Shown here piece by piece: positions 29,400 through 54,756 of a DNA stretch of 64,000 bases; the stretch's first letter is position 1; every line of letters begins with the position of its first letter. The translations under genes were made by a program, and so were the position numbers. This stretch comes from Ascidiella aspersa (Eukaryota). The notes under the pieces are model-generated. The model had not been told where the DNA came from. It made no database searches and worked only from the letters and a program-made list of their open reading frames with translations. The stretch spans positions 7,998,001-8,062,000 of the forward strand of contig OZ004612.1 in the NCBI GenBank assembly GCA_963924565.1. Direction: 5' to 3'.

Positions 29400-32300
29400 T
29401 TTGTTCCAATACTAAATATAGGCATCTAATTACTCAAACCCTATCTTTCACTACAACGTACTTTGGTTTATTAACCATTTGTCTAAACTTCTTGAACATA
29501 CAAATGGCCTTATTAAAACTTTGTGAAACATTCACTGTTGAGCTTATACGACTTGCGAACAAAGAGCAAACGTTTTAGCTTCGCTTATAGAAGTACCACT
29601 TTCCATTCCTAAGCCAAACCAAATATTTTCAGATTTGTTCCGCATTGAAATATCACAAACAGCAGTTCTGGTTACGTTCGATACATGTTAGTATGCCTAA
29701 GTTCCATCAAATACCGACAAAGAAAAACAATTGTTAACAAACTTCCTCTTAAACATAAGAAATAGTTGGTAGCCGTTAAGTTTGAAAGCCCTATGACGCT
29801 TTTAATGCATTAGAGGGAAATAGGAAGTCGCATTAATCATACAAATTCCATTACAGAATCGCACACCAGGAAGTTTTTTATACCTGACGTTTAGCAACCT
29901 TTTTCGCATGCGTCATTCTAATAGAAAGTTCTCACTGTTCAGCGATAGGCCTAGGTTAAAATTAGCCATGAAACTGTGAAAAGAATTGTGGTTGACAGTG
30001 TGCCCCAAGATTTCCTCTTAGATTTTGTCAAACAGCTACAAAGCACCTCACTTAACCGTTTAAAACTACTGGCTTATCAGACTGAACCGTGGTCGTTGTA
30101 ATCGTTATACGGGTTTGATGTTATGCCCCCCTAATATTTAGGGATTTTGTGAAGCCGTACATCAGCCAGGCTTCTGTTTTCCCAAATCTTACACTATTGT
30201 CATGAATATAAACTCTGTACTTCTGAACACAAATCAAATGGTTTACTTTAAAAATAAATTTCCAACAGTACAATCTTCTGCTTGTTCATTATCTGTCAAT
30301 TACCGCCAATTTCAAACAGGTGCACTTTTTTAAGGTTAAATGTATATTCAGTAAAGACAGAGCGGCAAAGAAGAAGATATGATTTATATATGCGAATGTA
30401 GCTCAATAGTGAATTGTTTGTGTTCTCTAAATACCTGTAAATTTTATACACACCGCTTCTAACTAATACTTTGCTATCATTACATCGAAATCCAACTTAA
30501 ACAAAACAAAGTTATTTATTCTGCTCACTTGTCGTATTAATCGGGCGAGATCGAAAAATGCAAAAGTCCACGGTCGTAGTTGTAACCCTGGGTTGTTGTT
30601 TACGCGCAATATTTACCTCTTATAACCGAGTGTTGCTTATCCAGCAGTTTATTATAATGAATCGACGTTTCGACGTCCTATACAAGAATCCAGGATAACA
30701 ACGTATCATGCAAGACAGATTCCTTACAAAGCGACAAATTGCAACAAACCACAAATTTAAACAGCAATAACGAATCGTGCGATTGCAAACTAGCACCAAC
30801 GTAGTGATAAAACAAGCTCAGTGGTGTAAAAGTGCCCGATAACTTATCGGCATTACAACATTTACCTCTTATGTTCTTAAATTATTTTAGAGCTTGGTAT
30901 GGAAAGCATGCCCGTGTGTTGGCTGCCTATTTGTTGAGCAAAACCTCTTGTTGCACAGTTCTTATCTATTATTAGCCAACACTAAACCAAAAGTTTCGAA
31001 ACCGTGGAAAGAACCTAATTATAGGAACAAAAGTAAAAGTCACTAAATATGATTGATGCCTAACTAGGGATCCTATAATGTATGGAAAACTACTTTTCAT
31101 CTTGCGAACCATAATAATCAAGTATAAATAAAGGTAAGTCTTCGAATAAAAGAAATCGTGAAATAAAGTCAAGGAAAGGGTAATTTGTTCAAAGACAAAA
31201 TACGAACAGAAAATACAAACTTAGGTTTTTGTATTCAGGCTCCAGTATTAATATATCCTTTGTACGCACTTTGGGAATGTATTGTTTTATTCTCGCTCCG
31301 AACCTAAGTCACGGATCGTTTGAAATAGACAAGGAATCAGTCGAATTATGTTAGTTTCGCGTCTTTAACTTGCTCATGAGTAAGACTCACATGCATTTTT
31401 GCATTTTCTTTATTAAATCATTCTTGGATTTTGTAGTTTCATTTCTAGTTTTTCATGGAAATATATACCCGTCTCAATAGACGGGTAAAAAATTGAAACA
31501 ATATATATTTTTTTCAATAAGGAACGCTTCACGATTTTGCGTGTCATCTTTGCGCAGTATATATGACAATCGTGGTCCGTAAATAACTGCGGCCTCTTGT
31601 GAGTCACAATAATTAAAAAGACATACTGCATTAAATTGAAATGCAGTGTTGTAAACAAGTCCTTAAGTCCAATTCAAAGGACTTAAGTCCAATTCAAGTC
31701 ATTTTGAATCTATAACAAGTCAAGTCCCAGTCAAGTCATAGTTAAAGCAAGTAAATTCCAAGTCAACTCCTTGTTATAAAAAATACACGTTAAGCAATCA
31801 AAATTAGTAAGCACGTCCTATTATGAGAAATGCATCAACTAAAAAATACCAAAAATGCTATAAACAGCAAGCAAATTGTTTTCTGTGTCAAAAATTTGAA
31901 TAAAGGTTCCAATTTTATAAAAAAAAATCTTATTGAAAACACTTCACTTCAAACCAAGTCATTTGTCTAAAAGACTTGTCAAGTCAGGTCATTTGGAAAC
32001 AATGATTTAAGTGCACTTAAGTCCATTTATTCATTAAGTCCATTCAGTGACCTAAGACATTGGAAGGGAAGTTAATTTTAAAAGCTAACCCCATTGACAT
32101 ACACGTGCGTTGTACAAAAGAGCCGCGTTAAAGCCGAACTCACAAAATGCCATTGTGGACAGCTACACAATTCGAATCGTGATATTCGAAACACCAGAGT
32201 TTGATGAGAACAAACGGGCCGAAAAACTTTCCCACTAAAGCACAATGTACTTTCTATAGACGAAACTACACAAGGCAAAATGATTAATTTCATTATACCT

Positions 32301-33641
32301 TTAAATTTACTATGCAAAAGTACACCAAACGAACAATTTCCAAGAACGATTGCCAAAAATAATTTTATAAAATTCTGAATTTTGATGTTTGTAAAAAGCC
32401 CAAGCAAAAGTAATCATCCGCGTTTGGAGTCAGTCAGCTTTTAACAATCGAAAATTTGAGTGTCGCTGATTCAAATGTTAAATATTAGCGTTTTATAGAT
32501 TGACGTATATGGTATAGATTGTGAGTTTGTGGTTACTACAGACTGGAGAGCATTGACGTGAGGTTTGCCAATTTGTTTTTTCTTTTTTGGAGAGAACATG
32601 TCCTCGTGGCCCCCTAATGCCAACCCTAAATATCACTAAGGTGTATCTCTTGAAAGTATAATAATACCCATTCAGGGGCCAACTTTCAGGATGTTTACCG
32701 CTAAAACTAACTGATAATGTATGGCTATGGCCACGTTGTGTGTGTATAGCGACGTCAAATGATGTGTTGTTTGCATTTTTTAGCCCACACATGAACTGGT
32801 GTAATAGATATTAGACTATCTGCTTGCGATCTCTATGCGATTACGGCGAGTAAGGTTTTAAATTTGTAGTTTGCCACAACGCCAATAATACGCCATTGTA
32901 TATATTTTCGCAGAATCACGATTTTCGCTCTTGATTAGTTCCGCTATTTCAGTTCAGGAAAGCGCGCACGGCTTACTATTAAATTCTCCCCTCTTAACAT
33001 TCGATATACGTTTAGGATTGAAAGGGATAAATTTTGACTTTCGTTTGGAAAACACTAAAAACGCACTCAATTGATAAAAAAACAAAATAAACTATCGATA
33101 CGGTCATGAGTAGCGCAGTTGTTTCCATGCTCACCACCTACACAAGCGACGTTTAAAATGCATGTGTATTTAAGGCGCAAACTATACTCGAGCAGTAATG
33201 CTATACCTTATGCTTAAAAGCAATAAAAAAAGGCTTGCTTCAATTTATCTTATTTAAAAAAACATTTTGGGGAGACCGTGAATACGTAAACTTACCGCAA
33301 ATACGGTCGCGGCGAATCGGTTGTTTTTACCTTCTTATTTCAACGCCGTGTTTCTTGCGACATTAACGATCCGCGTGAAACAGTTCAACTTAATCAACAT
33401 GCATTTTATGTCGCAATTATAGCAATACTTTTTAAACACAAGGTGCCGAAAAACGTCCAGAAGCAGCAGAATAACACTCGCCCCGGTAGGATCACCTGAA
33501 AGCACCGTAAAAATAGAGAAAAATGTGACATGTATACTCTCAACTTACGCTAGTCTATATGGGCAATAAAATACGGCGCACCCAGACGTGTTATTTAACA
33601 AAGTCAAATTTTAAATTAAACAGCCTATATTTATTGCCTAC

Positions 33642-34262
33642 CTGCGGAGTATATTCTTTTGTTAATGGCATTATAAACGGTTTCAGTAGGATTACCAATT
33701 TCAGAGCTATCTGTTAAGCATAAAGTATCATAGACATGGGTTGTTACAAGAGTACCATTTGAGCTAATATCTGGAAATTGAGTTGTATCTGGCGTTGTAG
33801 TGACAAGGAGGAAACAGAATCCCTTAACATGTATATTTCAACAGGTGAGACATGACCACCGTGCTATCTGACTCCACTAATTCGAAACTAAAACAAACTT
33901 TCATGTTGTTTAAAGAGCATACTGCACAAGAGCACAAGAGCGACTGCGATGGGGATTAATTGAGTCGAAATGCTGACTGGATTTGCCAGAACGGCCAGGA
34001 AAGGAAATGAGTATCGAGGTGAAATATTTAACACTTTACCAGGCGAACATGTTATAATTCCAAGCACAAACAGACATGCATCGTTCCTCTACAAACATCT
34101 GTAGAGTTTAACTTGCATCCTTGCAATTATGCGCTTGGGTCTAAAGTTGAACATATAGAACCAATAAAATTATATTAGGAATGATGATGCAACAGGTAAC
34201 ACTTGAAGTTTTTCGTCGTGGATGATCTCTAACATCGATTGCAAAACCATCGGCATAAGTAT
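33642..34262 (-). pseudogene. Decayed exons 10 and 11 of a fourth receptor paralog (relic D); duplicate at ~62530-62878 (+)
   Basis: The 62.5-kb copy reads YADGFAIDVRDHSQRE (copy A exon 10: [16 protein letters not shown]) and ag|TQAHNCEDAS*STDVKGFCILLVTT (copy A exon 11: [22 protein letters not shown]), with splice sites retained and an in-frame stop. Confidence 0.7.
33830..34093. mobile_element. Candidate solo LTR (264 bp)
   Basis: Begins TGTA, ends TACA, flanked by 4-bp duplication AACA (33826-33829, 34094-34097). Precisely absent from the duplicate at ~62690. Confidence 0.7.
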
Positions 34263-34752
34263 GTCTCAGAAAAGTGTAAATATAAATTGTGAAATAGTCC
34301 GAACAGCTATGGCGTAACTCATTAGCCTAATGTTCCACAGGGTTGCTTGTTTTAGACGCTCCACTATCACTATGAAGTGACTTTGACGTCATCTCTAAAA
34401 ATTTCATGCGTTTGGTGTTTTTTTTTGCGGGCGGACATGGTCACATTTTCCTTTTTAAAACATTCGAGATAGCAAGCCTGACAATGACGAGTATAGATAC
34501 TATTGTTCCAAAAAGTTGTCTGGCAGATTGAAACGCCTACAAGGTAACCTCAGCTACCTCCGTATCACATGGTGGCCCTTTATGATAACAATATTAATCA
34601 TACAGTGACATCAGCGTCAAAGGTAAAATGTAGAGTTGAGCTTCTTACTCTACTGATTGTACATATTATTGCTTGACTGCAACTGATAAGTGCTGCCGTG
34701 GTATACTACTGAAGCCATTTACCAGTTCGACGTTTATCTGTTTTAAGGAAAA

Positions 34753-37700
34753 ATGAAATTTGTTATTGGCTTTGTGGCAGTGCTTTGTTTATCATCATTT
34801 TGCGAAGTTACAGGTTAGTAAACATAGAATAAGATGTATTATTGAAATAAAGAGGTCTTAAGCGATACCCTTACAACGCATTGTATTTTCGATACAATCA
34901 AAGAGTAATTATGCTAGATTAGGAATTGTATATTTTGTTACAGAAAATGTTTCTAAACAAAAAAAAAGTTATTTGTTAAATATGCCATTTTTTATTCTTA
35001 TTTAGTCGATTTTTTTTCTGACATTTTTTTAAGAGACTATAGACTGCCAAATGAGCGTGCACTGTGCAGCCAATATTAAATAAAAGGGTTAATCGATTAT
35101 TCCCTATAATTTAAACAGATGGTACTGATCATGTTGACAATTAATTTACCAACCACCAAATTACACCTATGCCCTAAATGTGAAATATCTATACAGCATG
35201 CAACACTACATTGTTCAATGTTGGGACCACGATTTACACCTTATCCAATACACTCGTGGACGCGAACACGGCAAATAATGAATGTAAGTCGTTGGGCGGA
35301 CAACTTGCTGTTGTCAAAGATGCAGCTGTGATGAACAAGTTCTACCAGGAGATATTACACAAATACAATCAGCCAGGTAAGATTCACTAGCACATTTTCC
35401 CTGAAAAATGATGACTCATACCTGATAATGACTCATTACTCATGCTGTTGCGGCGTAAAATCTTAGTGCAGCGACTGCTAACCAAATACCTAAGTTAGGC
35501 TATAACAGGGCCACAAGAAGAAGAATGGTATCATAAAGAAAACTATAAATTATTTAATCACGTAACTTCCCAACCAGCAATCAAATGTTACTCCTATATG
35601 TTTTAATAGTTGTTCTAATTACAGCACCTATATGATTAATACGAAGTAAGGTATCTCGTGTGGCAATATTTAATTTATAGTTTTAACTATATGTCCTACA
35701 ACGTCTAACTTGACCGTTTTTTTTTAGTTTTTACCGTTTAACGAAAATAAGTCAATAAAGCTCTACGAAAAATGTTGTATCCGGATCGAAAATTTGGTGA
35801 CACCTAGTTTACAGAACGGTAAACAATAGCGGTTATAGCTACTGGAGTGAACAATAGGCCAATGTAAATACACATTTTGGTGTTCTTCAACAATGAACTT
35901 ACAAATGTTTAAATGGCTAGAAAATTAAAATTTAGGGAAATTATTTTGGCATTTTTCTGACCGCCGACCATCCAATGGCTTTCATTATTTTGCTACCAAC
36001 CATCCTGTAGAGAAAACATATTTTACTTAATTTTGTCACCCGATTCGATTTGTTTTCAACGCTTGTAGCGTTCGTATTAGGATAATTCGGGGCTTTGAAG
36101 CGTCTGTGTTAGAACATGTGTTAGAAATTAGACGCTTTAAGCGGACCGTATAAGAACAGGAAACAGGCGAACAGCGAATACGCAGACTAATCATGCATAA
36201 CGAAACGTTGCCAAGCGATGCAGACTATAGATTTTTTGTCTTGTACAGTTTTGGATATTAGAAATGCAGAAAAGTTTATAGCTGTACCAAGTTAATGCGA
36301 TGTTTGTAATTTTACCCAGTAAATAGAAGGTTAAAAGCTTTTATTGTTGCTAAAGCCTACCTTATTAGCGAACATTATTTGGTTTAGGGTGCGGGTTTGT
36401 GTATAAGTTAAGCAATACTAATTAATAATAATACTTGAACCACCCTTACCCCAGCCTGGAAAGTATAACAGAACACGCGGGTGCACTGCCGAAAAAAATC
36501 GCGTGACTAGGTGCAACAAAGTTAAAAAAGGGCGCTGGTCTAGAATCCTACCACATTTTAAATCAACGCACAATATTAGGGTTAGGGATGGCGAGAGTTA
36601 GTGTTTGGGTGTGGGTGGGTCAAGTATTCTTATGTTTATTTTTAACCCTAACCAAAATAATATGCGTTGTGGTAGGAATTTAGACCAGCACGAAAAAAGT
36701 GCATCTCTGGTCTGCTTTCAAATTTTCAGACTTCCATGTTATGATTTTCTCAGGCACTCTGTATTGCATACATTGCACTGTAAACATAATAGGGTGCACA
36801 AACGTTTTACATGTTTAGGGTGCAGTTTAGATTTTTTTCTCGGTGCACTTGCCATACTTTCCACAGTGGCCCCCACCCAAACAGTCCAGCGCCAATACTT
36901 TTATTGTTGCTAAAGCTAATAATGCTGTTTCTGGCTATTGACTTTCATTCCGAAGTTTTAGTAGTTAAAAGACAATGTTATTTACAATGCTAGAAAATAT
37001 TAGTTGTAGATAATTTACTTCATTATAATAAACTTAGTTAGCAAATAGAGGAATCAGGTGGCACTGTATAAAGACAAATTGTATTTGATTCTCGACAAGC
37101 TTTTGCACAACCGTGCTTCATCAGGTCAAATTGATTCTCGACAAGCTTTCGCACAACCGTGCTTTATCAGGTCAAAATGATATACAATTTGTCTTTATAC
37201 AGTGCCACCTGATTCCTCTATTTAGAATTAGACAAATACGGCCATATACAAAGATTAGTTAGCAAAATATATGCCAAGGAATATTAAATTAGATAAGAAG
37301 ACCTTTGTTTTGCAACTCATTTTCTAAAATTTGGTCACCATTATAATGTAAAGTAAGTCCTAGGTAGTATACATGTTTTAAATATTATAAATTGAAGCCA
37401 ATATTTTGGTGTTAAATTTAACTGTAACAATTGGCTATTGTTATGGTGCATATTGCATCTAGTTTGCATTCTGTGGCAGATGCATACCAAATATTTTTAA
37501 AGCAATTTGTCTGTACACCTCAATAACTAAATTGCACACTTCAGAAAAGGTTGTGTTGCAGTAGGATTTCAAACTTCAGTTATGCCAAAATATGTCTGCA
37601 CATCTGGAAAGTTGGTGATGTACGTCAGATATCTGTGCATCGCACATTCTTTGAATCACATTTTAGTGTAAATTTCAAATTTGTGGCATAAAAATCTTAA

Positions 37701-40700
37701 GGTCCGAAAATATGTTACTTCCTTCTGTTCATGGTGGTCTGAAGGCATACAACCAAACTAATAAAAACTCATGAATATTATTAGCTGTAAAAGTGTTGTA
37801 GTGATCTCAAGTTGACAAAAAATAGCTGCTGCATAAGGTTGCGAAGTTATAGCGAATAGTGCCCAATAAATTTAAATTTCATGTTTCACTACCTTAATTG
37901 ACCTTACTTTTTAACATTTTTGCATTCTTAACTTTTTCCATTAAGGTCATATACAAGTCATGATTTTTAATAAAATTTTGAACTTAAGTTGTTTATTATC
38001 TATAAGCTGCTTTAAGTTTAATATTACAGAATGTAATTAAATATTATCATGCCTGGCCAAATTAATTTATATTTTGTTTTTCATTATTAAAAATGTTTTT
38101 ATTTCCTGAAATAGCATTTTATATAATTCCTAGATGTAATATTTCAGTCAACCCCCAAAATTAAGGACTTTGTAAGGTGAAAGTGCAAGTAAAAAGATGT
38201 CTCTGAAAGTGTTATGTAACCTTTAAATCATTGGAAAAGCTCTCTGCATCAAGTCTACACCCATTTGACAAAGAAACAGCTTCAGTTTCCATCCCAACTA
38301 ACAAACCTTTGTGCATGGAAGTTAGAGAAAAGGTAATTTCCATTCTGTGTGTTGTACATTCCAAAACATTAATGTTTACCAACACTTCCCAACCTGTGGC
38401 CGATGGTTTCCAGGTACCAAACTCGAAAATGTTTTCATAATAATCTTTTATAACAGCGTGGCTAATTTAGTCCACAGTTATTGAAATATGTAACCAATAT
38501 ACAAGGCCTATTTAATAAAAACATGCAAGTAGTTCAGGAGAAATATATGTATATCTAACATATTTAGTATTGTCTAGTGTCGACAAGGGAGTCCAATCAT
38601 CTAACAAGGAGAAACAACTAGCGATGAACTCGTGGCGCCTATGTGCAAAAAATCATACAGTGATGAAGAAAAGGACAAACAATTAAATGTGTAATTATTC
38701 TATACCGGTGGTTACTGTATATTTACCCCCCATCATTTCACACAATCGTTCGTGTTTGGCGCTTAAAACTCCACATGGTAAAATAAACAGATTTGGAAAA
38801 TCATAAATGGCCCATTGATTTGAGTTATAGTTCCTAACAGGCCGTTTAAAATACCCGGAATGCGATAGTTTATTGAACGATTTTATGGACTACGTATGCT
38901 ACATTTATTACGCACCACATTGTGAAATTTTGGAAAAACATATAAATAGTTTCCTGCTTTAGTACATTCTGATTATGTTTTTGTGCCTTGTTTTTAGCTA
39001 TTAGTGCTTTGAATGTGAGTTTAATAAAACAAAAAACAACGGTTATGTGTTCCAGTGTTGGTTGACTCCAAATACTAAGTCCACTTACAAATAACAGTAT
39101 TTTTGTTAGCTGAATTTTACGCATTTTGCGTTTCGCCCTTAGTATCAAAAAAGAGGCCGAACAGTGTATTAAAATAAATAATTTTATTAATTACTACATT
39201 AAAATTATGTCCGTGTTGGGTCGTTCCTTGTTCTACAATTGACGATTAAAAATCAAGCAATATATCCACCGCACAACGCAGTAAATCAAAACGTGAATTG
39301 AGCACACATTTTTGTAGTGGTTTATCGTGATATTTATTGATTCGACCTATATTTGCCCCTATGATTTCGTTGTATCTGGTAGGACTCCAAAGGTCCAGCC
39401 ACAAGATCGAAATATATATTTCGGAATAAAACAAAAATCGCACTAGGACTTAATAATCGTAATAACGTATAAACGGAATATGTCCTAAATACGTCGGAAT
39501 AAGACTTAGCCTAAAATCGATGCCAAAACAGCGGAGCCTTAACAGCGCTGTTCCATCTAGGGTGCCCAAGCGTCGATCCCAAAACAGCCGACGGCCCCTG
39601 ATCGTCCCATACCCTCTCCCTACAGTTTCAGACGTTATTTTGGCCATCAAACGCCCTGTTTTAATGAATTTAGGACTTTCCGGCGGGTATGTGTCTTATT
39701 CAGGCGATTTAGATCTTATTCTGTCGTGGGAATTAGGCCTACTGCGTATTTGGCTTTATTATGTCGTTGGTCTTCTAACTATGGTATTATAGATTTTTGT
39801 GCTTAATGTATTTTTGATTTATAGTAATTATTGTATGTTCCCATCTGATTCCTATAAATCTTTCTTAAATGGTGCCAAGGTGTAATGACTGCTAGCGATG
39901 GATACAATCGTGTTTATACTTTTAATAGCTTACGTTACAACATGTTGGTCACCTCGGACAAACTTCCGACGTCAACCTGGTTATAAAATGGCCATATTTC
40001 TGAAAAAATCCATCTCTTTAGGTTTTAATACTGTTAGCACTGCTGTTTTGAGGCATTGTTTTAACTACGTGTGACGAAACGAAACTAAACAATTATGGTT
40101 TGTTCAATGAGAACATATTTTTGCCTTGCGTCTAAAAGTTCCTCACAATATTTGTCAAAAGTTAAAAAGCTTAGTATTAATGCACATTTCAACATACTAA
40201 ACCATGCCTATTAACGATTTTTATCCTGGCAGCTGCACAGCCGACAATTGTCTGCGAGAGCCTGTGGCTGTTTTAATTCTCATAAACACGTCTTGATTAT
40301 ACCAGTACCCAAAGTGTACTTCGGTTAAAAATGAGTAACTTTTACAATTGTAGAAAATATAAACACAATGATTCTTGTGCGAAAACTGTTTGTTTACATT
40401 TCGTACCTTGTCCGTAATTTTAATTTTGCGCTGACTGTTGCAAAGCTAACTTTCCCACGGTTGAACCTTTTAAATGCCTTTGATCCGAGCTAAGTACAGA
40501 AAAGTTTTTCAAGTTGGAAAATTAAAACTAACACATTTGTGGGAGAAATATAAACTGAGATGTTTGGTAAAACAACAGTTCGTTCAACTCTTTTCGTTTG
40601 GCAGTAATTTGACTGCGCGTTAAAGTTCGCAAAGCTGACTTTTCGCAAAGGGTCGTGCCTTATAAATGCTTATGAAGCGCGCTTAGTACAGAAGCATTTT

Positions 40701-43700
40701 TCAAGTTGGAAAATTAAAAATTACACATTTGTAAAAGACGTCTAAACTGAGATGTTTCGTAAAACAACTGTTCGTTCAACTCTTTTCGTTTGACAGTAAT
40801 TTGACTTCGCGTTAAAGTTTGCTAGGCTGACTTTTCGCACAGGGTTGTGCGTTATAAATGCTTATGAAGCGCGCTTAGTACAGAAGCATTTTTCAAGTTG
40901 GAAAATTAAAAATTACACAATTGTAAAAGACGTCTAAACTGAGATGTTTCGTAAAACAACTGTTCGTTCAACTCTTTTCGTTTGGAAGAAATTTGATTGC
41001 GCGTTGAAGGTCACAAAGCTGACTTTTCGCACATAGTAGTGCATTATAAATGCTTATGATGCGCGCTTAGTACAGGAGAATTTTTCAAGTTGGAATATCA
41101 AAACTTACACATTTGTGGGAGACATATCAAATGAGATGTTTCGTAAAACAACTGTTCGTTCAACTCTTTTCGTTTGGCAGTAATTTGATTGCGCGTTGAA
41201 GGTCGCAAAGCTGACTTTTCGCACATAGTAGTGCGTTACAAATGCTTATGAAGCGCGCTTAGTACAGAAGCATTTTTCAAGTTGGAAAATTAAAAATTAC
41301 ACATTTGTAAAAGACGTATAAACTGAGATGTTTCGTAAAACAACTGTTCGTTTAACTCTTTTCGTTTGGCAGTAATTTGATTGCGCGTTGAAAGAGTACA
41401 CTTTGGGTACTGGTATACTCAAGACGTGTACATGAGAATTAAAACAGCCACAGGCTCTCGCAGACAATTGTCGGCTGTGCAGCTGCCAGGATGAAAATAT
41501 TTAACAGGCATGGTTTAGTATGTTGAAATGTGCATTAATACTAAGCTTTTTACCTTTTGACAAATCTTGTGAACAACAATATTTTTAGACGCAAGTCAAA
41601 AATATGTTCTCATTGAACAAACCATAATTGTTTCGTTTCGTTTCGTCACACTTAGTTAAAACAATGCCTCAATACAGCAGTGCTAACAGTATTAAAACCT
41701 TAAAAGATGGATTTTTTTCAGAAATATGGCCATTTTATAACCAGGTTGACGTCGGAAGTTTGTCCGAGGTGACCAACATGTTGTAACGTAAGCTATTAAG
41801 AGTATAAACACGATTGTATCCATCGCTAACAGTCATTACACCTTGGCACTATTTAAGACAGTTTTACAGGAATCAGATTGGAACATACAATAATAACTAC
41901 AAAGCAAAACCAACGACATAATAAAGCCAAATACCCACGACAGAATAAGATCTAAACCGCCTGAATAAGACACATACCCGCCGGAAAGTCCTAAATTCAT
42001 CGAAACAGGGCGTTTGAAGGCCAAAATAACGTCTGAAACTGGAAGGAGAGGGTATGGGACGATCAGGGCCATCGGCTGTTTTGGTATCGACGCTTGGGCA
42101 CCCTAGATGGAACAGCGCCGTTAAGGATCCGCTGTTTTAGCATCGATTTTAGGCCCTGTTTAGGGTTAGAAAATTGTTTTCAGAGTTGAAATTATTAGAA
42201 GGGTTTGTGATGTACCTACAGGCGGGGTTAGATGAAATTTTGTATAGGCTTGGTTCTTTCATGCAAGTTAAGTCTTATTCCGGACATATTCCGTTGATAC
42301 GTATAGGACATATTGCGTTTATACGTTATTATTACGAGTATTAGGTCCTAGTCCGATTTTTGTTTTTTTCCGAAATATATATTTCGATCTTGTGGCTGGA
42401 CCATTGGAGTCCTACCAGATACAACGAAGTCATAGGGGCAAATATAGGTCGAATCAATAAATATCACGATAAACCACTACAAAAATGTGTGCTCAATTCA
42501 CGTTTTGATTTACTGCGTTGTGCGGTGGATATATTGCTTGATTTTTAATCGTCAATTGTAGAACAAGGAACGACCCAACACGGACATAATTTTAATGTAG
42601 TAATTAATAAAATTATTTATTTTAATACACTGTTCGGCCTCTTTTTTTAATAAGGACGCAACGCAAAATGCGTAAAAATCAGCTAACAAAAATACTGTTT
42701 GTAAGTGGACTTAGTTTTTGGAGTCAACCAACACTGAAACACATAACCGTTGTTTTTTATTTTTATTAAACTCACATTTAAAGCACTAATAGCTAAAAAC
42801 AAGGCTCAAAAACATAATCAGAATGTACTAAAGCAGGAAACTATTTATATGTTTTTCCAAAATTGCACAATGTGGTGCGTAATAAATGTACCATACGTAG
42901 TCCATAAAATCGTTCAATAAACTATCGCGTTCCGGGTATTTTAAACAGCCTGTTAGGAACTATAACTCAAATCAATGGGCCATTTATGATTTTCCAAATC
43001 TGTTTATTTTACCATGTGGAGTTTTAAGCGCCAAACACGAACGATTGTGTGAAATGATGGGGGGTAAATATACAGTAACCACCGGTATAGAATAATTACA
43101 CATTTAATTGTTTGTCCTTTTCTTCATCACTGTATGATTTTTTGCACATAGGTGCCAAGAGTTCATCGATAGTTGTTTCTCCTTGTTAGATGATTGGACT
43201 CCCTTGTCGACACTAGACAATACTAAATATGTTAGATATACATATATTTCTCCTGAACTACTTTGCATGTTTTTATTAAATAGGCCTTGTATATTGGTTA
43301 CATATTTCAATAACTGTGGACTAAATTAGCCACGCTGTTATAAAAGATTATTATAAAAACATTTTCGAGTTTGGTACCTGGAAACCATCGGCCACAGGTT
43401 GGGAAGTGCTGGTAAACATTGATGTTTTGGAATGTACAACACACAAAATGGAAATTACCTTTTCTCTAACTTCCGTGCACAAAGGTTTGTTAGTGGGGAT
43501 GGAAACTGAAGCTGTTTCTTTGTCAAATGCGTGTAGACTTGATGCAGAGAGCTTTTCCAATAATTTAAAGGTTACTTAACACTTTCAGAGACATCTTTTT
43601 ACTTGCACTTTCACCTTACAAAGTCCTTAATTTTGGGGGTTGACTGAAATATTACATCTAGGAATTATATAAAATGCTATTTCAGGAAATAAAAACATTT

Positions 43701-46700
43701 TTAATAATGAAAAACAAAAATATAAATTAATTTGGCCAGGCATGATAATATTTAATTACATTCTGTAATATTAAACTTAAAGCAGCTTATAGATAATAAA
43801 CAACTTAAGTTCAAAATTTTATTAAAAATCATGACTTGTATATGACCTTAATGGAAAAATTAAGAATGCAAAAATGTTAAAAACTAAGGTCAATTAAGGT
43901 AGTGACACATGAAATTAAAATTTATCGGGCACTATTTCCTACAACTTCGCAACCTTATGCAGCAGAGCCTATTTTTTATCAACTTGAGATCACTACAACA
44001 CTTTTTCAACTAATAATATTCATGATTTTTTATTAGTTTGGTTGTATGCCTTCAGACCACCATGAACAGAAGGAAGTAACATATTTTCGGACCTTAAGAT
44101 TTATATGCCACAAATTTAAAATTTACACTAAAATATGGTTCAAAGAATGTACCATGGACAAATATCTGACGTACATCACCAAATTTCCAGATGTGCAGAC
44201 ATATTTCGACATAACTGAAGTTTGAAATCCTACTGCAACCCAACCTTTTCTGAAGTGTGCAATTTATTTATTGAGGTGTGCACACAAATTGCTTTAAAAA
44301 TATTTGGTATGCATCTGCCACAGAATGCAAACTAGATGCAATATGCACCATAAAATTAGCCAATTGTTAAAGTTAAATTTAACACCAAAATATTGGCTTC
44401 AATTTATAATATTTGAAACATGTATACTACCTAGGACTTACTTTACATTATAATGGTGACCAAATTTTAGAAAATAAGTTGCAAAACAAAGGTCTTCTTA
44501 TCTAATTTAATATTCCTTGGCATATATTTTGCTAACTAATCTTTGTATATGGCCGTATTTGTCTAATTCTAAATAGAGGAATCAGGTGGCACTGTATAAA
44601 GACAAATTGTATATCATTTTGACCTGATAAAGCACGGTTGTGCGAAGGCTTGTCGAGAATCAATTAGATCTGATGAAGCACAGTTGTGCGAAAGCTTGTC
44701 GAGAATCAAATACAATTTGTCTTTATACAGTGCCACCTGATTCCTCTATTTGCTAACTAAGTTTATTATAATGAAGTAAATTATCTACAACTAATATTTT
44801 CTAGCATTGTAAATAACATTGTCTTTTAACTAATAAAACTTCGGAATGAAAGTCAATAGCCAGAAACAGCATTATTAGCTGTAGCAATAATAAAAGTATT
44901 GGCGCTGGACTGTTTGGGTGGGGGCCACTGTGGAAAGTATGGCAAGTGCACCGAGAAAAAAATCTAAACTGCACCCTAAACATGTAAAACGTTCGTGCAC
45001 CCTATTATGTTTACAGTGCAATGTATGCAATACAGAGTGCCTGAGAAAATCATAACGTGGAAGTCTGAAAATTTGAAAGCAGACCAGAGATGCACTTTTT
45101 TCGTGCTGGTCTAAATTCCTACCACAACGCACATTATTTTGGTTAGGGTTAAAAATAAATATAAAAATACTTGACCCACCCACACCCCAGATTGGAAACT
45201 TTGGATATTGCGCGGGGGAGATGTTTTGCAGCTGAAAAAATGCGCGGCTGAAAATAAACCACCAGGCTACCGAACGTTGTAAGTTGCGACATTATAATAA
45301 ACTTACAGGTTTACAGCGTTCATAGAATACTTGAAGCACTGAGCAATTTTTGTTTGGTATGCGGGCGCAGCTAAATATTTAAAAAGTTTGACAGTTTAGC
45401 ATTTAATATGCAATATTACTCGTTATTGCCTAATTTGACGTCACTATTCACGTGACCGTTGTCCACTGATGCGTGACCAAAACGCAGAACTGTGCGTTTT
45501 CAGAGTTTCGCAGGGGATTTTATAGGATGCATTATATTATATAGGTCTTATAAACTAGCGTTAAAAAATGTTGTGCAACTTCAGTATGCGGCCCGCCAAT
45601 TTTTTTTGTGCTTGTTGTGTCCCTTGTACCATTTTAGTTGTGCAGGTCTGATTTAAGGTGACACTTTTTCGGTCGTTAATATACTATAGTCGTACACGAG
45701 TGATGAGTGAATAAATGTGACGTCAGTTTTACAGGAGCCATACTAACGTTTCTATTATGTTAATATACTTCTCGTAAATAGTAAAGGTTGTTAAAGTCCA
45801 TATTTATATTTTAGCAGTATTACTCATTTTTAGGTCATTTAGTTTCATACAGAAGTTTGCGCGGCTGAAGTTTTGCGCGTTTGCTCGAGTCAGATTTGCG
45901 CGGCTGAATACATTTTCTATAAAATGCGCGGCTGTGACCGCGGCTGAAGGTGCTACGGCCAAACTTTCCAACCTGGCCCACATCCAAACACTAACTCTCG
46001 CCGCCCCTAACCCTAATGTTGTTCGTTGATTTAAAATGTGGTAGGATTCTAGACCAGCGCCCTTTTTTAACTTTGTTGCACCTAGTCACGCGATTTTTTT
46101 CGGCAGTGCACCCGCGTGTTCTGTTATACTTTCCAGGCTGGGGTAAGGGTGGTTCAAGTATTATTATTAATTAGTATTGCATCGCTTGGCAACGTTTCGT
46201 TATGCATGATTACTCTGCGCATTCGCAGTTCGCCTGTTTCCTGTTCTTATACGGTCCGCTTAAAGCGTCTAATTTCTAACACATGTTCTAACACAGACGC
46301 TTCAAAGCCCCGAATTATCCTAATACGAACGCTACAAGCGTTGAAAACAAATCGAATCGGGTGATTTTGTTCATGCCTATCGAAACCTAAAACTGGATCA
46401 AAAATGACATATTTAGACCTGAAAACTGCAAAACAAGTAATCCTGCTGATATAGGGCCTGGTCATAGAGAAACCTATACCAATTAAGATATTTTTTTCAT
46501 TAAGATCTACAAAGAGTTTACATCTTCTACGATCATCTTCCTGATCGGAGCACACCTCCCCAACAGAGAATAGTTTACAAATTCTCGAAGGATCCAGCGA
46601 TAACTGGCAATTGGAAGAGTACAAAGGAACTTGGGCAACTTTGGTATTTAGACCTGTACAAAACGTAAGTTTAACCTAATTTAAACGAGAGCTGCGGAGT

Positions 46701-49700
46701 CTTTTAAAAATAACCATAGCTCGACTACGGCCAAAAGTGTGATTACGTAAAGTCTGGATCCGATTCTACAGCCTGTATTGTAAACACGTTATAAGAAATC
46801 TATTAATGTGCATATATTTGGTGTGTATCACTCATCCAACCATAATATGGTTGTAAAATATTCCACCATTTGCTATTGTAATTTTATCATTAACCTTATT
46901 TGTTTCGTAATCGGAGCAATACTCGAATCCAGATTCCGCTGTCCATTTTGCGACCAGTAAACAGGCCATGAACACGCTAATGCCAGAATTATATAATTCA
47001 AAACGCCAAAATTCTTTACGCAACATTCACTAGAAAATTTGCGTTAGCAAGCCATGGATATCAACGTGAGAAAAAACAGCTCCACTTTACGTCTTTACAT
47101 TACATTTTATTTATTTTTTGTTTAGTAAGACGCGAAGAGCTAAAAGCATTAGAAATGTCGGTTATCTGTTGCGCGGCAAATATACCAAACATCAGTCTTG
47201 TAAAGATGTCATTTTGAAATGACTTAAGTCCCAGTCAAGTCATTTGTAAAATAATCTAAGTCTAAGTCAGGTCATATGTAAAATAACGTAAGTCCAAGTC
47301 AAGTCTGTTTGAATGAATAACAACTCAAGTTCCAAGTCATAATTAAAGCAAGTCAATTCCAAGGCAGGTCCTCGTCATAAGAATTACACGTTATAAGCTA
47401 TTAAAATTGGGTAAATTCGATTATGAACAATATTTTAACTAAAAATACATAAGAGGCAAGAGGGCAAGAAAATTATTTTATGTGCAAAAATTAAAATAAA
47501 TAATCTAAATTTACGAAAACACTTAATTTAAGTCAATTTTTTTAAAAACGGCTACCTTAGTTATTGACATAAGTCATTACAATACTGCCAAATATCCACA
47601 CTTATTGTGTTTTCGCAACCTGTAACTTAGGCAAACTTGTACACAGATACTATATTATGCATATTCTGTGTGAACCTTTCTAAAATCAAATGCTTCAACA
47701 CGTAACCATAGATTGCCCAACCATAATGCATTGTTCGTAACTCAATCGCAGACAAGGCACTCAGAGAGAAGCCGTTTACTTTTGCCAACATAAACATCAA
47801 AGGTGGAGAGTGGTGACGCCTGGAGAATCATCGGAAAAAGGACAAATTACAAACAGTTGCCCGATTGCCGAAGGTTAGCTTTAAATATGGCGTCTATGTC
47901 CACTTGTAATTATTCTCTACATATCAAACAAACCTCTGGTAAATGAGAAAGTAAGATAATCGTTTAAGTTTATAATAGAAAACTCCCGAGAAATTTGACT
48001 ACTTGTCTCACTGTGACCAGTTTAGTCGCCTACAGTCATTTGCGAAAACTTGTCATGTGTTTTTTTATACTCTAGAACAAGAGTGGGCAAACTGCGGCAC
48101 GCGAGCAGTTAAGGCCACTAAGAGTACCGTTTATGAACGTTTCTCTCTTTTTAATTTCTTTATTTAGGCCAAATTTGACAAAGAAATAGAAATAGAAGAG
48201 TGAGTTGCAAGTCAACGTAATTTCATTGCTAAGGTTTCTGAGATTAGCAAATCAAACAAAGACCGATATTGATAAATAATGTGCGTGTTGTTTTGGTATT
48301 ACCGTTTTGTTATATTCCAATTCTGTTATTATTGCTGAACTTATATTATTTAGGCCTACCGTTTTTGTATTGGAATAATTTTGAGGCTCTGTGGTACTTA
48401 AATTTTCTGCAAATGGCTCTTCGATTAAATACATTTGCCTACCCCTGCTCTAAAATCTAGATAATTTATGGTATAAGAATGTTTTTATTTTAAATAAGAA
48501 ACAAACCGCCCAAACTAAAATAAAACGTTACTCGGTTAAATGAAAGTTTACCGGAAGTCTTGCTCTACCAGTTTATAGCGGGTGATTTTACAGCCATTAA
48601 ACCACCATTAACAAGGAAGTATAGCTTGATCGGCAAATATGCTGCTAATAAAAAGTGGTTGATAAATGAAAATCGGTCGCATATAATGCTGGTTTTGTTT
48701 TACTGCATTTTACAGGAATAAAACCGTTTACGCCCTTGTAAAAGGACAAAGCCTAATAAAGGATATTTGTAGTAATTGTGATCTTTATAATGGCCTAATG
48801 TCGTTGACCTGGCGTCCATGTCATATTTTGTTTTACGAAATTTCACACTTTATTGACACAAAACAAAGAATGGTTACTAAAATAAAACGCCACAGAATAT
48901 CAGTGTAATGCGCCTTGTTAAAATTGTGCAAACCAAACACTTTGCAACCGATTTGTGATAGTTAAGAGTTATAGCACTAAAAAATTGACTTAAGCATGAA
49001 GATTGGTGCGCTAGTGCGTGTTATTCAATAAACCAACAAGTCACCAAATATAGAGTTAGCTCCACCAGGCAACATATCAATAAATATAAATCGCTCTTCT
49101 GGTGTAAACGAAGTATAAACCGACGTTTCGGCAGCAGGCTAACGCACTCTCGTTTTAATTATTAACCCTGATGAGGTCAGCTGGTATCTGCTGCCGAAAC
49201 GTCGGTTTATACTTCGTTTACACCAGAAGAGCGATTTATAAGTCACCAAATATGTTTAACAAAGTGATCACACATAAAAAACACGACTAAAATTTAAGCA
49301 ACAGTTTTGAATACGTTGTCCTGTTGCCGTCAGGTATTGATTAAATTGTCAAACTATTTTCCCGGTAAAGTTTCATTCAAATGCCAACGTTTCGACCATC
49401 CATTCAAACAAATTGTTTCCCTGGTATATATATTTTTTCGCCAATTTGCAATTAAATTGCCATGGTGAAGATTGCTCCAATAAGTGGTCGAAACGTTGGT
49501 ATTTATCATATTGCCGGAAGAACATTTTTTTAAAACAATTTTCTTATTTCTGCAGAATGGTACAACGACTTTCACCTATATGCACGGAAATTACCGGCTG
49601 CGGGATACGAACCAATTTATAACTTCCTCAGAAAGTTATATCCACGATCTAGCTTGTTGACTGATGTGGATAATTCATTTTTGGGATTTGTTACCTTAAA

Positions 49701-52199
49701 GAAAGCATTCTATTTGCCAGGTTTTGTATTATTTATTTAAGTTTTATTACTACACACTCATAAATTTCTTTAACGTATTTTGACGTATTTTAGTTACAGA
49801 TTTATTCGTCTATTTACATGTTATTGCCTGGACACTAGTTTAGGTAACGATAATTGTGACTATTGCAGTAAATTATTTGCTTAACATATTATTCTATTTA
49901 AGCAGTAACACAATTTCTGATGTTTTTGAATTTCATCCCTATTTATTGACCCAGAAATGCCTAACAAATGAGTAAGTTATTTGATAAGAATATATGCTTG
50001 TGGTAGTAGTGAGAAGTGTATTTGTGGGAGCTCGTTACAATTCAACCACCAAGCAGTGGAATTGGAGCGATGGAACCAGCGCAAACTTTACCACAACACC
50101 TACAACATGCAAACAGAAAGCATTCTCGTATAAATTGAAAGACTTGGAAGATAGAAACTGTTCGGGGCAACTCGCCTACTATTCCTGTGAAGTGAGGCCA
50201 AAGCGTAGGTGTATACTATCGCTGTTCGTAACTAAATTCACTACAATGAAGTACACACAGGCCGGGCGGATCCAGGTTGGGGGCACGCGGCCATGTTCCC
50301 CTTAATCTCCATTTTTTCCATTCGAATTGATAACATTTTTGTGATGTAGCTATTGTATTGAAACTAATACCTCTCCAACCTAAACCTAAACCAAAACAAA
50401 CGAAAATGTTTGATGCTCTTAATGTTATTTCTTTATAACGTTTATTTAGATGTAACGTTATGACGTCACCATTAGACGTAGCGTTTTGACGTAATTTATG
50501 AAAACAATTAAGCTCTATGGCACTTGACAGCTTTCATTCTTATACTAAAATTGTACTATAGTAACAACTTGGATCGCAATGGAGAATTGTACCTCTACAA
50601 TGATCCATATAAACTGGTCGAACGACATTCACAAACTAGCCAATAACACAGGATATGGTTATCACATCAAGGTAAGATGTTGTAAAAATGTCTATATTTT
50701 ATTAAATGGCAAAAGGCAATGGCTAAATAGCGAAAAAGATACATAAATCACCTATGCAATTCTTCCAGAGCAAAACATTTAAGTAACATATGGTTAATTG
50801 GTTATGTGTCTCAGGTAGTGTTTTTAAATGTGTTTTGAGGAACTGAAGTTGGTCTCTTAAAAGTAAATATAATAAAAAAATCGAAACAGGTTATTTAAAA
50901 TCAAAGTCTCTATTGCACCCATTGAGCACTTGGATATACCGAAAAAAATTGACATACACGTTTTATTCTCCAGATAAAAGTTTTGAAAAACGACAACAAC
51001 ATAATGGTTAAAATATTTACCGGAACAGTTTCAAGTTTCACGGTTGTCGGGTTAAAGAAACGTACCGTGTATGATATACAGGTGATTGCAGCTCAACTCA
51101 GGAGTTGTGATTTTTTTTTAATTGTTATTTATTTCGTTAGATCAACGCTTCAATCACTGGTTGTAGCTCGTATAACGTTGTTTTAAATAGCAAAGTGACA
51201 ACAGGATATGGGAAACCTGATCCAGTCACTAACGCCTACGTCAAGTCACCAATGCCCTGTGTTGTGGCTTTAAATAAATCATCAACCGACAGCAATATCG
51301 TCGCATATGAGGTATTCGTTTTCTTACATAGCATAGTTTTCGTTCATTGGTGTAATCATTGGACCCCAAATAATTTTGATGTCCCTTTTAGAATATTAGA
51401 TGAACAAAAACTGATATGCTATAGAACCAACGGCAAACTTTACTGTTTTATTAACAGATTGCAGCAAACAGTGCGAAACATGAGAGCGTTCACAATTTTT
51501 TGGCCAATGCTGATAGATTCCGCGTCGATATCAATAATTATCCAAGTGGAGAAAACATAAGCCTTACGGTAAGTATATTGAATAAAACAAATGATTAAAA
51601 TGATTATATTAATGTTAAAAAATATAATAAAATATCAAATATTCGAATTTGACATGTTTAACAGATCAAGGCATTCTCTTGCGAGGGCGGCAGTTACACA
51701 ATGAAAGTCAGCGGTTTTTGTTTTACGCCTGTCAATACAACCACCACGGCCACTGGCGTTAGTTCGACTGAAAGTGCAATTGGCAAGCTCAGCAATAACA
51801 CCGGTAGTAAACTTAAGAAATCAGGGTTTGGGGGAAACATTACAATAGCGTCTATATTACACCTTTTCCTAAATGTACATTAAGACGAATTATGACATTT
51901 CACTAAATGAAATAAAAGAAAATTACAATTACACAACGACCGAACTTATAACGTTATGAGCTGATTAAATTGCATTCACAAAAATAAGTTAGTTCGGTTA
52001 CATTATAATCGGTTACCAATGCTCGGTGGGTCAGATTCTTATAAACTATAAACACCTGCACCTAAAATCTTAGAACCAGTGTTGTCTTACTTAGTTTTCA
52101 ACGTAACGGTTTGATTTTAGATCTTGGATTAATCTTTGGCATCATCTCCACTTCGATTTTAATCCTAATGGTTAGTGTTTTAGTCGGACTGAAAATACG
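34753..52199 (+). CDS. C-type-lectin-like/FN3 type I membrane receptor without PTP domains (copy B); exons 34753-34813, 35197-35376, 46505-46664, 47752-47873, 49556-49720, 50010-50204, 50562-50671, 50974-51081, 51141-51311, 51458-51568, 51665-51782, 52121-52199; terminal exon uncertain
   Basis: Exon-for-exon paralog of copy A exons 1-12 with compatible phases and no stops: MKFVIGFVAVLCLSSFCEVT...DLGLIFGIISTSILILMVSVLVGLKIR. No PTP motifs are seen downstream. Possible short tails are read-through WVTVIQRQNNYFSASYV* or an exon at ~52509 (KTKIEKSSRRL*). Confidence 0.82.
37043..37222. repeat. Small hairpin/MITE nested in the foldback arm (mirror copy 44571-44750)
   Basis: ~40-bp inverted repeat aaatagaggaatcaggtggcactgtataaagacaaattgta around a twice-repeated ~46-bp unit (ttgattctcgacaagc...tcaggtcaaa). 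Confidence 0.85.
40425..41394 (+). repeat. Tandem array of about five 192-bp units at the centre of the foldback element
   Basis: Marker (g/t)cgcgtt recurs at 40615, 40807, 40999, 41191, 41383, spaced exactly 192 bp; the first unit is more diverged. Confidence 0.95.
45187..45976. mobile_element. 790-bp non-autonomous TIR element inserted in the right foldback arm only
   Basis: Ends ccagattggaaactttgg / ccaaactttccaacctgg; 8-bp TSD cccacacc/cccacatc; repeated subterminal gcgcggctg motifs; empty site in the left arm at ~36606-36616. Confidence 0.85.
49052..49240 (+). mobile_element. Penelope-like element remnant with inverted segment
   Basis: 13-bp flanking duplication agtcaccaaatat (49039-49051, 49241-49253); ~53-bp inverted repeat 49085-49138 / 49188-49240; contains a hammerhead core. 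Not seen in copy C. Confidence 0.7.
49161..49210 (+). ncRNA. Minimal type I hammerhead ribozyme motif
   Basis: attaacc-CTGATGA-ggtcagc.tggtatct.gctgcc-GAAA-c-GTC-ggtttat: conserved core, stem I and stem II pairing, GUC cleavage triplet, palindromic ACGT stem III. Confidence 0.75.
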
Positions 52200-53317
52200 G
52201 TGGGTAACAGTAATTCAGAGGCAAAACAATTACTTTTCTGCTTCATATGTATAGCCATGCAGTGCGGCGTCAGCGTTTTTTAGGCGGCTAAATATTACAT
52301 GAGTGTCCGACAAAGGCAGTTAGGCGAGCAACAAGTGTACAATGTCAGGTGCAACGGTTTTAGCAATTAAGGGCGTTCAGTTGCAAAAGAAACATTCCAT
52401 CGTAAAACGTCTTAAGGGTTGTTCAAATATTCAAGGCCATTTTTTAGGCCAACATTCAGCGGTTCATGCACAGCTTATTTGTCAAGTAGGCTAATAGTAA
52501 CCCATTAGTAAAACGAAAATCGAGAAATCATCTCGACGATTGTAGTAACATCGATCGGCCTAGTACAAAACAGAGCCTAACATAAAAAATACCTTGGCGG
52601 CGTCGAAGAACAAGATTTGTAATGACTGTATAAGCTAATTTAAATTGAAATGACTTAATTATACAATTTTTAAAATTAAGCGCTTTTGTTCTTTTATTAA
52701 TGGCTGTATTTGTTATTAGTGAAGAAGTGAAACAAGTAAAATATGTTAAACACAATTCTTGGTATTTTCATAAGAGGGTCGAGAGCCTTTCAAAGGGGGC
52801 CACGAAGCATAAAAGGTTGAGAACCACTGGCATAGACCAAAGCAAAACATTTTTATACAAAATCCACGTTACAATGGGGTCACTTTTATATTAACAGGTT
52901 CTTGTCACAACACTATACTTTACGTCGTAACAATTAAGTCACAAAATTTAGAAACACCTGTACTTTGTCCCACGTTTATAAGTGCTATGGTGGCAGAACT
53001 ATTTGTCAACATTTTATAAATTATAAACCAGTTAAGGCAAGTGTTGCTCGTTTAAAGCAGGTGGGCATAAAGTCTGCAAGCCTCAGAAAGCAACACGTTT
53101 TATAAATAACTATATATATATATATATATTAGACGTTAACTAGCATTAAAAATGTATTTCAGATCGCTGTTATAATATGTATATAAGGCAATTGAAAGGC
53201 CATTTAAATTTACTGCATATTTCAGTTAAAACGTGAAATATCAAGATTGAATTTCTACTAGGATAGAAAACCTGGTGCGCTAATAGGTATCGACTAGGGC
53301 AGGCTATCATGCTATAC

Positions 53318-53658
53318 CAGGGGTTCTTAAACTGGGGTCCATGGACCCCTTGTGGGTTCGTGAACTAGTTTTAGGGGGTCCACAAAGGTCTAATTGAAAT
53401 ATTAGTGTTTATTTAAGAAGTAATCAATTTATTAAAGAAATCAATTTAGTTAAAATAAAACGGTTTTGCACTGAATGTATTTGGACTCCATTTCACTTTT
53501 ACGATTTTGGACCAAAATCAGCAAATTTATGAAGTCTATTTGTACTGTGACGTCAATTTATGACGTCATTTTTTTAATTTTTGTTTTTGCCTACAGTGGT
53601 CCACGCGAGATGAAAGTAAATTTTAGGGGTCCGCGGTAAAAAAGTTTAAGAACCCCTG
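53318..53658. mobile_element. hAT (Charlie-like) MITE in the spacer between copies B and C
   Basis: TIR caggggttcttaaact / agtttaagaacccctg; TSD tgctatac/tgctgtac. Confidence 0.85.
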
Positions 53659-54756
53659 TGCTGTACTAATTATCCTGGTTACAGAAAATGGTTTGAAATC
53701 CCAAAAAGGCTTGTCAATGTTTTTTATTCAACTTTTGAAATCAAGGTTGAACGACGGTTAAGCCGTTTGTTTACTTCGGTTGGATGAGTTGCTGTTGGTT
53801 TGGAGTTTAAACGTATTCATTGAAATGAAATTACGAGTTTCGCCAGTAGGATTTTTGTTGAAAAGGCAAAGTATATTCAGTTGAACAGTGTGTTGATTGA
53901 TTGTGTCAAATAAGATGAAATGAAATTATAATGTAAGTTTGTTGTAGCCTTGTAGAAATTTATCTATGCATTACCTTGGGGAAGCATGTAAGATCCGTCG
54001 TCTTGTTTCTGGAAAGTTTGAATTGCTAAAAAACATAAGGCTGACCTTAAACGAAGTTACAGCGAATCCGGTGGTGGTACAAAGCTTAACCCCAGAATTA
54101 TTTTTTTGCATTTCTTACATAAATTTAACTTTATCTATGTTACGCAATTTCTTTTACACTCAACACTAAAATTTTTACAACCTGGTTGTACAACCTTAGC
54201 TAAAAGGACGTTTGTTAAATTAATTGCTTTATAACAGTGTTTCTTAACCTTATTTGGCGACTACCCAAATAGTAATAACAGCAAAGTTTTGGCAACCTAA
54301 TTTTCTTCACCGAACTAATTTTAAGCTTAACGCAAACAAAGCTCAAATAAGAGATTATTAATAATAACTTCAAATTTATTCATTATGAGCGATGTCGCAA
54401 TTGTTGCAATTTCAGAGAAATCTTGCTCAGAACGAATGTCAATAAATCTAACCAGGTGAAATACTCCAGTCAGCTACCGACCCAAACCGATTGGCGATTT
54501 AAATGTTAAGAAAACACTGCTTTATGATCTAGTTGTTTTACGTCATATATTAACGGCTGCTAAAAAAAGCATAGAGGAATTAAGCATAACGTAAGATATT
54601 TTAACCAAGCTGAAATCATTACCAATGCCAGACGTTGGTTGATTGTTTTCTGGTCTTTGTTGGTCGGTATTTCGTTCATGAATCCAAGCATGAAATTTAA
54701 TCAAAAACATTTTTGCAGCTCACGAAATGTTCACGTGTTTAATTACTGTTACCCAC

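Follow-up and report, generated by a model that had tools for sequence, protein, structure and literature searches.

A 10-kb foldback insertion with Galileo-like architecture in an intron of a receptor phosphatase-related gene of Ascidiella aspersa

A foldback insertion of 10,327 bp interrupts a gene in the genome of the ascidian Ascidiella aspersa. It occupies positions 36037-46363 of a stretch of 64,000 nucleotides (GenBank assembly GCA_963924565.1, contig OZ004612.1, positions 7,998,001 to 8,062,000 of the forward strand; hereafter the window, whose numbering is used throughout). The insertion is non-coding, begins with 5' CAC and ends with 3' GTG, has precise inverted ends and is bounded by a target-site duplication (TSD). 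It has no strand of its own and consists of a left arm of 4,284 bp (36037-40320, plus strand), a central spacer of 1,074 bp (40321-41394, plus strand) and a right arm of 4,969 bp (41395-46363, minus strand), which is the inverted copy of the left one. We interpret the element as a non-autonomous cut-and-paste transposon in which internal sequence of the first arm was copied to make the second, and we put the probability of this reading at about 70 %.

The bounds of the element were defined by comparing its two flanks with each other and with a paralogous intron. Identical 7-mers (ATTTTGT) lie directly outside both ends (36030-36036 and 46364-46370, plus strand), and the chance of such an exact repeat at the base composition of the window (G+C about 35 %) is roughly 2e-4. 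In the paralogous intron of a second gene copy (copy C, described below) a single ATTTAGT is present on the minus strand (60704-60710), identical to ATTTTGT at 6 of 7 positions. The flanks of the element, when inverted, align collinearly to this one empty site, and the inverted terminal repeats (TIRs) stop exactly at the insertion boundary. An original prediction, made from the letters of the sequence, had described the length of the insertion, its CAC...GTG ends, a 7-bp TSD and the empty site in copy C, and all of these were recovered. Because of the TSD, the precise ends and the missing gene, and in the light of established cut-and-paste biology, the insertion was most likely made by a transposase encoded elsewhere.

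Since the 7-mer opens with A and closes with T, the junction formally permits a second reading, TCAC...GTGA with a TSD of 5 bp (TTTTG), an alternative already raised in the prediction, and the empty site is compatible with both readings. With such ends the element would be Transib-like or hAT5-like, and a passage of PMC12730594 indeed gives TSDs of 5 bp for hAT5 and of 2-5 bp for the CACTA-Mirage-Chapaev-Transib group. However, the same passage describes the termini of that group as mostly CA..TG, whereas the element has CA..TG ends in the 7-bp reading and TC..GA termini in the shorter one; the extra pair of the shorter reading would take no more than one A/T coincidence. We favour the 7-bp TSD and regard TCAC...GTGA as improbable true ends.

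A comparable insertion might also arise independently of transposition, either by inverted duplication of host DNA at a break or by two elements inserting head to head. The arms resemble the host introns in being non-coding, AT-rich and laden with MITEs (miniature inverted-repeat transposable elements), and none of their segments matches the rest of the window; a 12-bp indel between gene copies B and C, 10-25 bp left of the junction, is the sole hint of imprecise repair. Against this stand the exact 7-bp duplication and the precise CA..TG ends, and neither inner termini nor an inner TSD were found. The terminal 12-mer matches exactly at the two ends only, and with up to 3 mismatches it was found 27 times against 23.0 expected; the number of looser matches is thus no higher than expected by chance. 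An inner terminus is therefore absent, and we rejected a head-to-head double insertion. An origin without transposition appears very unlikely. Self-comparison and the terminal 12-mer scan found no second copy of the element in the window, and an exact search with the terminal 25-mer returned 0 matches in prokaryotic genome contigs, which is uninformative for an animal element.

Alignment of the arms, performed segment by segment with large indels kept apart, yielded 4,015 columns with 121 mismatches (97.0 % identity). Identity amounts to 98.4 % for the terminal 186 bp (36037-36222, plus strand, against 46178-46363), 97.9 % for 36412-36606 against 45977-46180, 97.4 % for 36607-39494 against 42299-45187 and 95.0 % for 39509-40320 against 41395-42154. 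The outermost 136 bp are identical between the arms; the inner limit of the 186-bp segment is set by an indel and is not a proven TIR boundary. Mismatches are more frequent in the inner part (38 of 754 columns) than in the outer part (83 of 3,261; Fisher P 0.0008) and are overdispersed over 16 bins (P 0.002). This uneven identity is as expected of conversion or layered extension. It provides no date for the insertion, because later insertion, deletion and patchy conversion would account for the differences between the arms. Together the arms span 90 % of the element, but paired bases make up 78 %, with 55 perfectly paired runs of at least 21 bp totalling 3,203 bp. The earlier description of almost entirely one palindrome with 4.3-kb arms therefore fits the span and the left arm, but neither the paired fraction nor the longer right arm.

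Three arm-specific indels lie where they had been predicted. The first is a segment of about 190 bp that is present in the left arm only (36223-36411, plus strand), sits between 3-bp GCA repeats and has a 19-nt stretch in common with 36898-36916; it was probably lost from the right arm by deletion. The second is a segment of 114 bp restricted to the right arm (42155-42268, no strand assigned) without an evident TSD, and the third is a right-arm insert of 790 bp. The spacer begins with a short unique stretch, followed by a tandem array of a 192-bp unit repeated 4.8 times (40466-41394), which the right arm meets abruptly in the middle of a unit. The arms themselves do not contain this array; near the ends, the only tandem subrepeats are a 46-bp pair inside a nested MITE-like hairpin.

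Long palindromes are prone to assembly error, and ascidian alleles can diverge by about 3 % plus indels. Either a chimeric foldback read or the inverted joining of two haplotypes could in principle have produced the mirror structure. The original prediction took the divergence of the arms as an argument against an assembly echo. Divergence alone is weak in this respect, because 3 % plus indels falls inside the allelic range. Its conclusion nevertheless stands on other grounds: an artefact is disfavoured because the mirror symmetry goes precisely as far as the TSD, beyond which the host intron continues in register with copy C, whereas an echo would run past the element end into the flank. Furthermore, the right arm carries its own TSD-bounded insert, and the centre is an asymmetric spacer. 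We consider an assembly artefact barely credible.

The nested inserts allow the order of events to be read. As had been noted earlier, the arms are composite: both contain a small inverted-repeat element with TTAGGG (36425-36633; 27-nt ends, 85 % complementary), followed by a related inverted piece at about 36646-36883, and a MITE-like hairpin of 181 bp (37043-37223, mirrored at 44571-44751) with 48-nt arms of 96 % identity and the 46-bp unit repeated 2.1 times. As hairpin and TTAGGG element occupy the same position in both arms, they are older than the second arm. The 790-bp insert (45187-45976; like the two others, without a strand) has imperfect inverted ends of 18 bp, repeated subterminal motifs and an 8-bp TSD that is identical at 7 of 8 positions (45179-45186 and 45977-45984). 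It is present in the right arm only and the left arm provides its empty site, so that it is younger than the arm duplication. Judged by its TSD length the insert looks hAT-like, TSDs of 8 bp being described as usual for hAT elements in a passage of PMC12730594.

These observations are consistent with the following scenario. The element would have reached intron 2 of gene copy B when a transposase encoded elsewhere made a staggered 7-bp cut there. The progenitor of the element would have had ordinary ends and one internal region, with the small nested elements and the 192-bp tandem array already aboard. Rebuilding of one end by repair or conversion, with the other end as template, would make the giant arms a secondary feature; copying would have proceeded about 4 kb inward and halted at the tandem array, resulting in the order end-internal-spacer-internal-end. 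Afterwards, the hAT-like MITE would have inserted into the right arm, each arm would have been trimmed by deletions, and patchy arm-to-arm conversion may have kept the arm identity high. End-templated internal copying with a TIR1-F1-F1-TIR2 product has been proposed for the Drosophila element Galileo, as set out in part of PMC3573991, and Galileo copy 112 (PMC4168063) is an actual case of such a product. We infer both this repair mechanism of arm growth and mobilisation in trans by a P-type enzyme; a single copy is compatible with arm growth either before or after the element arrived at the site.

Alternatively, the element could belong to a foldback family, of the Mutator/Phantom/FB type or from a hAT lineage with 7-bp TSDs, in which multi-kb arms are native and are the true TIRs and the whole 10-kb unit is mobile. 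The identical outermost 136 bp would fit a recent use of the ends, and TIRs of Mutator-like elements (MULEs) reach up to 1.5 kb in plants. A passage of PMC3169594 states that the foldback structure is common to unrelated transposases, and 7-bp TSDs are given for fungal hAT7 in PMC12730594. Yet the arms harbour nested elements and have the appearance of degenerate internal DNA, and near the ends they lack tandem subrepeats apart from the 46-bp pair in the nested MITE. Furthermore, TSDs of Tm1-type elements are mostly 8-10 bp (45 of 53) in the data reported in part of PMC3169594. For animals, a candidate hAT lineage with 7-bp TSDs is hATw. Taken together, native arms seem unlikely, and we retain the reading of a transposon with a secondarily copied second arm.

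The coding capacity of the element was analyzed by two types of scans. First, 114 stop-to-stop open reading frames (ORFs) of the left arm, the spacer and the right-only segments, with a minimum of 30 amino acids (25 in one short segment), were scanned among 135 proteins, and no transposase family of Pfam was found; the best match within the element (E 0.0037) was to an unrelated family and under its cut-off. Secondly, six-frame read-through translations (X at stops) of 36037-37260, 37224-39500, 39480-41400 and 45187-45976 revealed no transposase, THAP or related family, and the weak Pfam matches in 39480-41400 were all under cut-off and mostly inside the tandem array. Within the sequence that the right arm shares with the left, the separate coding scan covered 42390-42850. 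One of the six frames of the arm core (37225-39500) gave 0 matches in PDB and 0 among 1.84 billion representatives, and an Rfam scan detected no RNA family in the element. Two candidates noticed by eye were rejected: a THAP-like look at 38950-39400 had no Pfam support, and a hAT CxxH-like stretch in one arm (about 37625-37665) gave 0 matches in Pfam, in PDB and among the 1.84 billion representatives, the last two searched with one of six frames. The prediction that this copy lacks a transposase is thus in agreement with both scans, and such a lack is usual among two-TIR copies.

Several points weigh against our interpretation or its link to Galileo. No transposase or THAP remnant ties the element to any superfamily. 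The TSD length is known from a single junction of the one visible copy, which also allows the 5-bp reading. Galileo targets a GTANTAC consensus inside a 15-bp palindrome, according to part of PMC4168063; ATTTTGT, as one site, agrees with it in 2 of the 6 fixed positions whichever strand is read, and over 15 bp this target is not palindromic (3 of 7 pairs). The original prediction had compared internal tandem repeats with those of Galileo; the 192-bp array does exist, but in the spacer, whereas Galileo has its tandem repeats inside the TIRs, where they carry secondary THAP sites. Finally, copying from a divergent allele could also produce uneven arm identity. As mobilising source, the P superfamily is a tentative choice with a little less than an even chance; a 7-bp hAT lineage is unlikely, as is, to the same degree, a superfamily outside those named here, and a Mutator/foldback lineage is slightly more doubtful still.

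The element resides in a family of three paralogous exon sets, A, B and C. Copy A (17700-28800, minus strand) is receptor tyrosine phosphatase-like, with lectin-like and FN3-like ectodomain exons followed by transmembrane-like and tyrosine-phosphatase exons. Copy B (34753-51900, plus strand; end approximate) has a signal-peptide-like start and C-type-lectin-like and FN3-like exons in an exon comparison, and its intron 2 (35377-46504) houses the element. Copy C (55000-62030, minus strand) comprises ectodomain exons only. Lectin_C was matched only weakly, with E 0.01 in copy A and E 0.16 in copy C, and the FN3 label was given by eye. The restriction to ectodomain exons suggests that B and C may be secreted or decoy forms. 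A search with the phosphatase exon listed 18 matches among 23 candidates, mostly from vertebrates, with 51-72 % identity and no tunicate among them. Copy B appears intact in the exons compared, and its exon 8 keeps the 13-codon spacing of copy A. In exon 8 of copy C (55960-56000) we observed 8 extra bases relative to both B and A, a probable frameshift, and the element-free twin may be a pseudogene.

B and C are the two sides of a larger inverted duplication (32511-52215 and 54741-64000), arranged tail to tail around a 2.5-kb spacer and running off the window. Its distal parts are 95-99 % identical. To quantify the divergence of the introns, BLAST-aligned columns were counted with 5 columns masked around gaps; the sites are non-independent. 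In introns 2-4, located on both sides of the element, 252 of 1,560 sites differ (16.2 %), compared to 125 of 3,819 sites (3.3 %) in the other non-exonic parts. The resulting island of high divergence, which has no strand, extends from 35300 to 49700 (against 57400-61500) and covers exons 2-5, and its edges near 35300 and 49700 are step-like, as conversion-tract ends would be. Within this region we also noted an insert specific to C in intron 4 (57630-58440), with imperfect inverted ends, and an insert specific to B (about 48850-49420), which contains a hairpin (49085-49240).

It is possible that the island is a gene-conversion shadow, in which the 10-kb heterology shields its neighbourhood from conversion between B and C. 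Several observations stand against this idea. The island is asymmetric, reaching 0.7 kb to the left and 3.3 kb to the right of the element, with the left edge 740 bp away from it. Divergence peaks in intron 4 (19.5 %), which has large indels of its own. In addition, the probability that all seven TSD positions stay identical is 0.81 at 3 % divergence and 0.32 at 15 %, and the identical TSDs mildly point to an insertion younger than the island. B and C are possibly in part allelic; the empty site would then be an empty allele, leaving the argument for an insertion intact. A more far-reaching picture combines an ascidian, hence chordate, Galileo-like P family that is mobile as a 10-kb foldback with a copy acting as conversion barrier in a gene palindrome, so that a secreted paralogue of the receptor phosphatase could drift away from its twin in the N-terminal lectin-like exons 2-5, and a 4-kb RNA hairpin would form in the intron. 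As a whole, we regard this picture as a long shot.

A closer look at the remaining window revealed further genes and repeats. An RZ-type zinc finger exon (3519-3761, plus strand, E 2e-18) presumably belongs to a ZNFX1 or RNF213-like gene. Exons of a cytochrome P450 gene lie at 8442-13369 on the minus strand; one of them had 4 matches among 33 candidates, all from Ciona savignyi with 48-52 % identity. The spacer between B and C contains a MITE-like element (53318-53658), related to 12937-13150, whose ends are CAG..CTG and whose apparent TSD is 8 bp long (7/8). A dispersed repeat about 300 bp long, itself containing short tandem units, is present in at least five copies of 68-74 % identity (10173-10492, 23395-23834, 31681-32012, 47286-47519 and 59449-59817), and a second dispersed family in three copies of about 75 % (8788-9080, 18706-18996 and 60136-60258). 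The single Rfam match of the window is a weak tRNA hit (2258-2321, plus strand, 34 bits) that was not called by ARAGORN and is possibly the head of a short interspersed nuclear element.

The locus is of interest in several respects. If the ends of the element lead to a P-type transposase, TIR extension of the Galileo style would be shown outside flies, for which we found no report in the literature searched, a body of literature that has most subscription journals outside it. A palindrome within a palindrome, together with an empty twin site, constitutes a natural experiment on a large insertion versus gene conversion between paralogues. The locus also raises the question whether about 4 kb of double-stranded RNA in an intron is tolerated by a gene, with copy B as the apparently intact twin.

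Compared to other known systems, the 7-bp TSD does not single out P or Galileo, because 7 bp is also given for the fungal hAT7 and Kyakuja in a passage of PMC12730594. Kyakuja shares the CA..TG ends as well, but is fungal, protein-coding and without TIRs; hAT7, alike in TSD length, is likewise fungal and protein-coding. With the Mutator/Foldback elements Tm1 and Phantom the insertion has long inverted arms, non-coding derivatives and nested inserts in common. In contrast, Tm1 mostly has TSDs of 9 bp and TIRs of 13-15 bp tandem motifs, and neither is found here. Among ascidians, Ciona intestinalis has a foldback element (Simmen and Bird 2000) that is said to be smaller and built of subrepeats.

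The closest resemblance is to Galileo. Galileo and 1360 generate 7-bp TSDs, as stated in part of PMC3698922, a length that the element shows at its one junction, where 5 bp can also be read. The terminal 40 bp of Galileo are conserved, with 17 invariant bases, according to part of PMC4168063. TIRs enlarged by internal sequence and nested transposable elements (TEs), a Galileo feature, recur here as a structural likeness. In Drosophila mojavensis, two-TIR (2RT) Galileo copies are non-autonomous too, and their TIRs have grown by recruiting internal sequence; the longest TIRs, found on non-autonomous copies, measure 1,260 and 1,241 bp according to a passage of PMC3573991, about a quarter of the arms described here, and the arms of the longest copy are 95 % identical. 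The Galileo authors consider TIR length an unreliable classifier, as stated in the same paper.

Copy 112 of Drosophila willistoni Galileo is described in part of PMC4168063 as 9,021 bp long and transposase-free, with TIRs of 4,246 and 4,680 bp, nested TE fragments, tandem repeats and identical flanking TSDs. Both elements are about 9-10 kb in size with arms of 4.2-5.0 kb, lack a transposase, contain nested TEs in both arms and are flanked by identical TSDs. They differ in that copy 112 has repeats of about 140 bp inside its TIRs in place of a spacer array, and in that copy 112 can be linked to a known family of transposases, while the likeness of our element is structural only. The family of copy 112, with TSDs of usually 7 bp, also has GTATTAC as target consensus in its 15-bp palindrome, compared to ATTTTGT here. 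The designation as a Galileo-like family in the original prediction holds for the structure, for which copy 112 is a closer match than the prediction knew, but the target consensus and the missing transposase remnant do not bear it out. Because of this close precedent the novelty of the element is lowered: the architecture is already known from Drosophila. As the element carries no transposase gene, we leave its family unassigned and describe it as structurally comparable to an extended two-TIR Galileo. It does not represent a new kind of element, but extends this architecture, as a large and clean example, to a new lineage.

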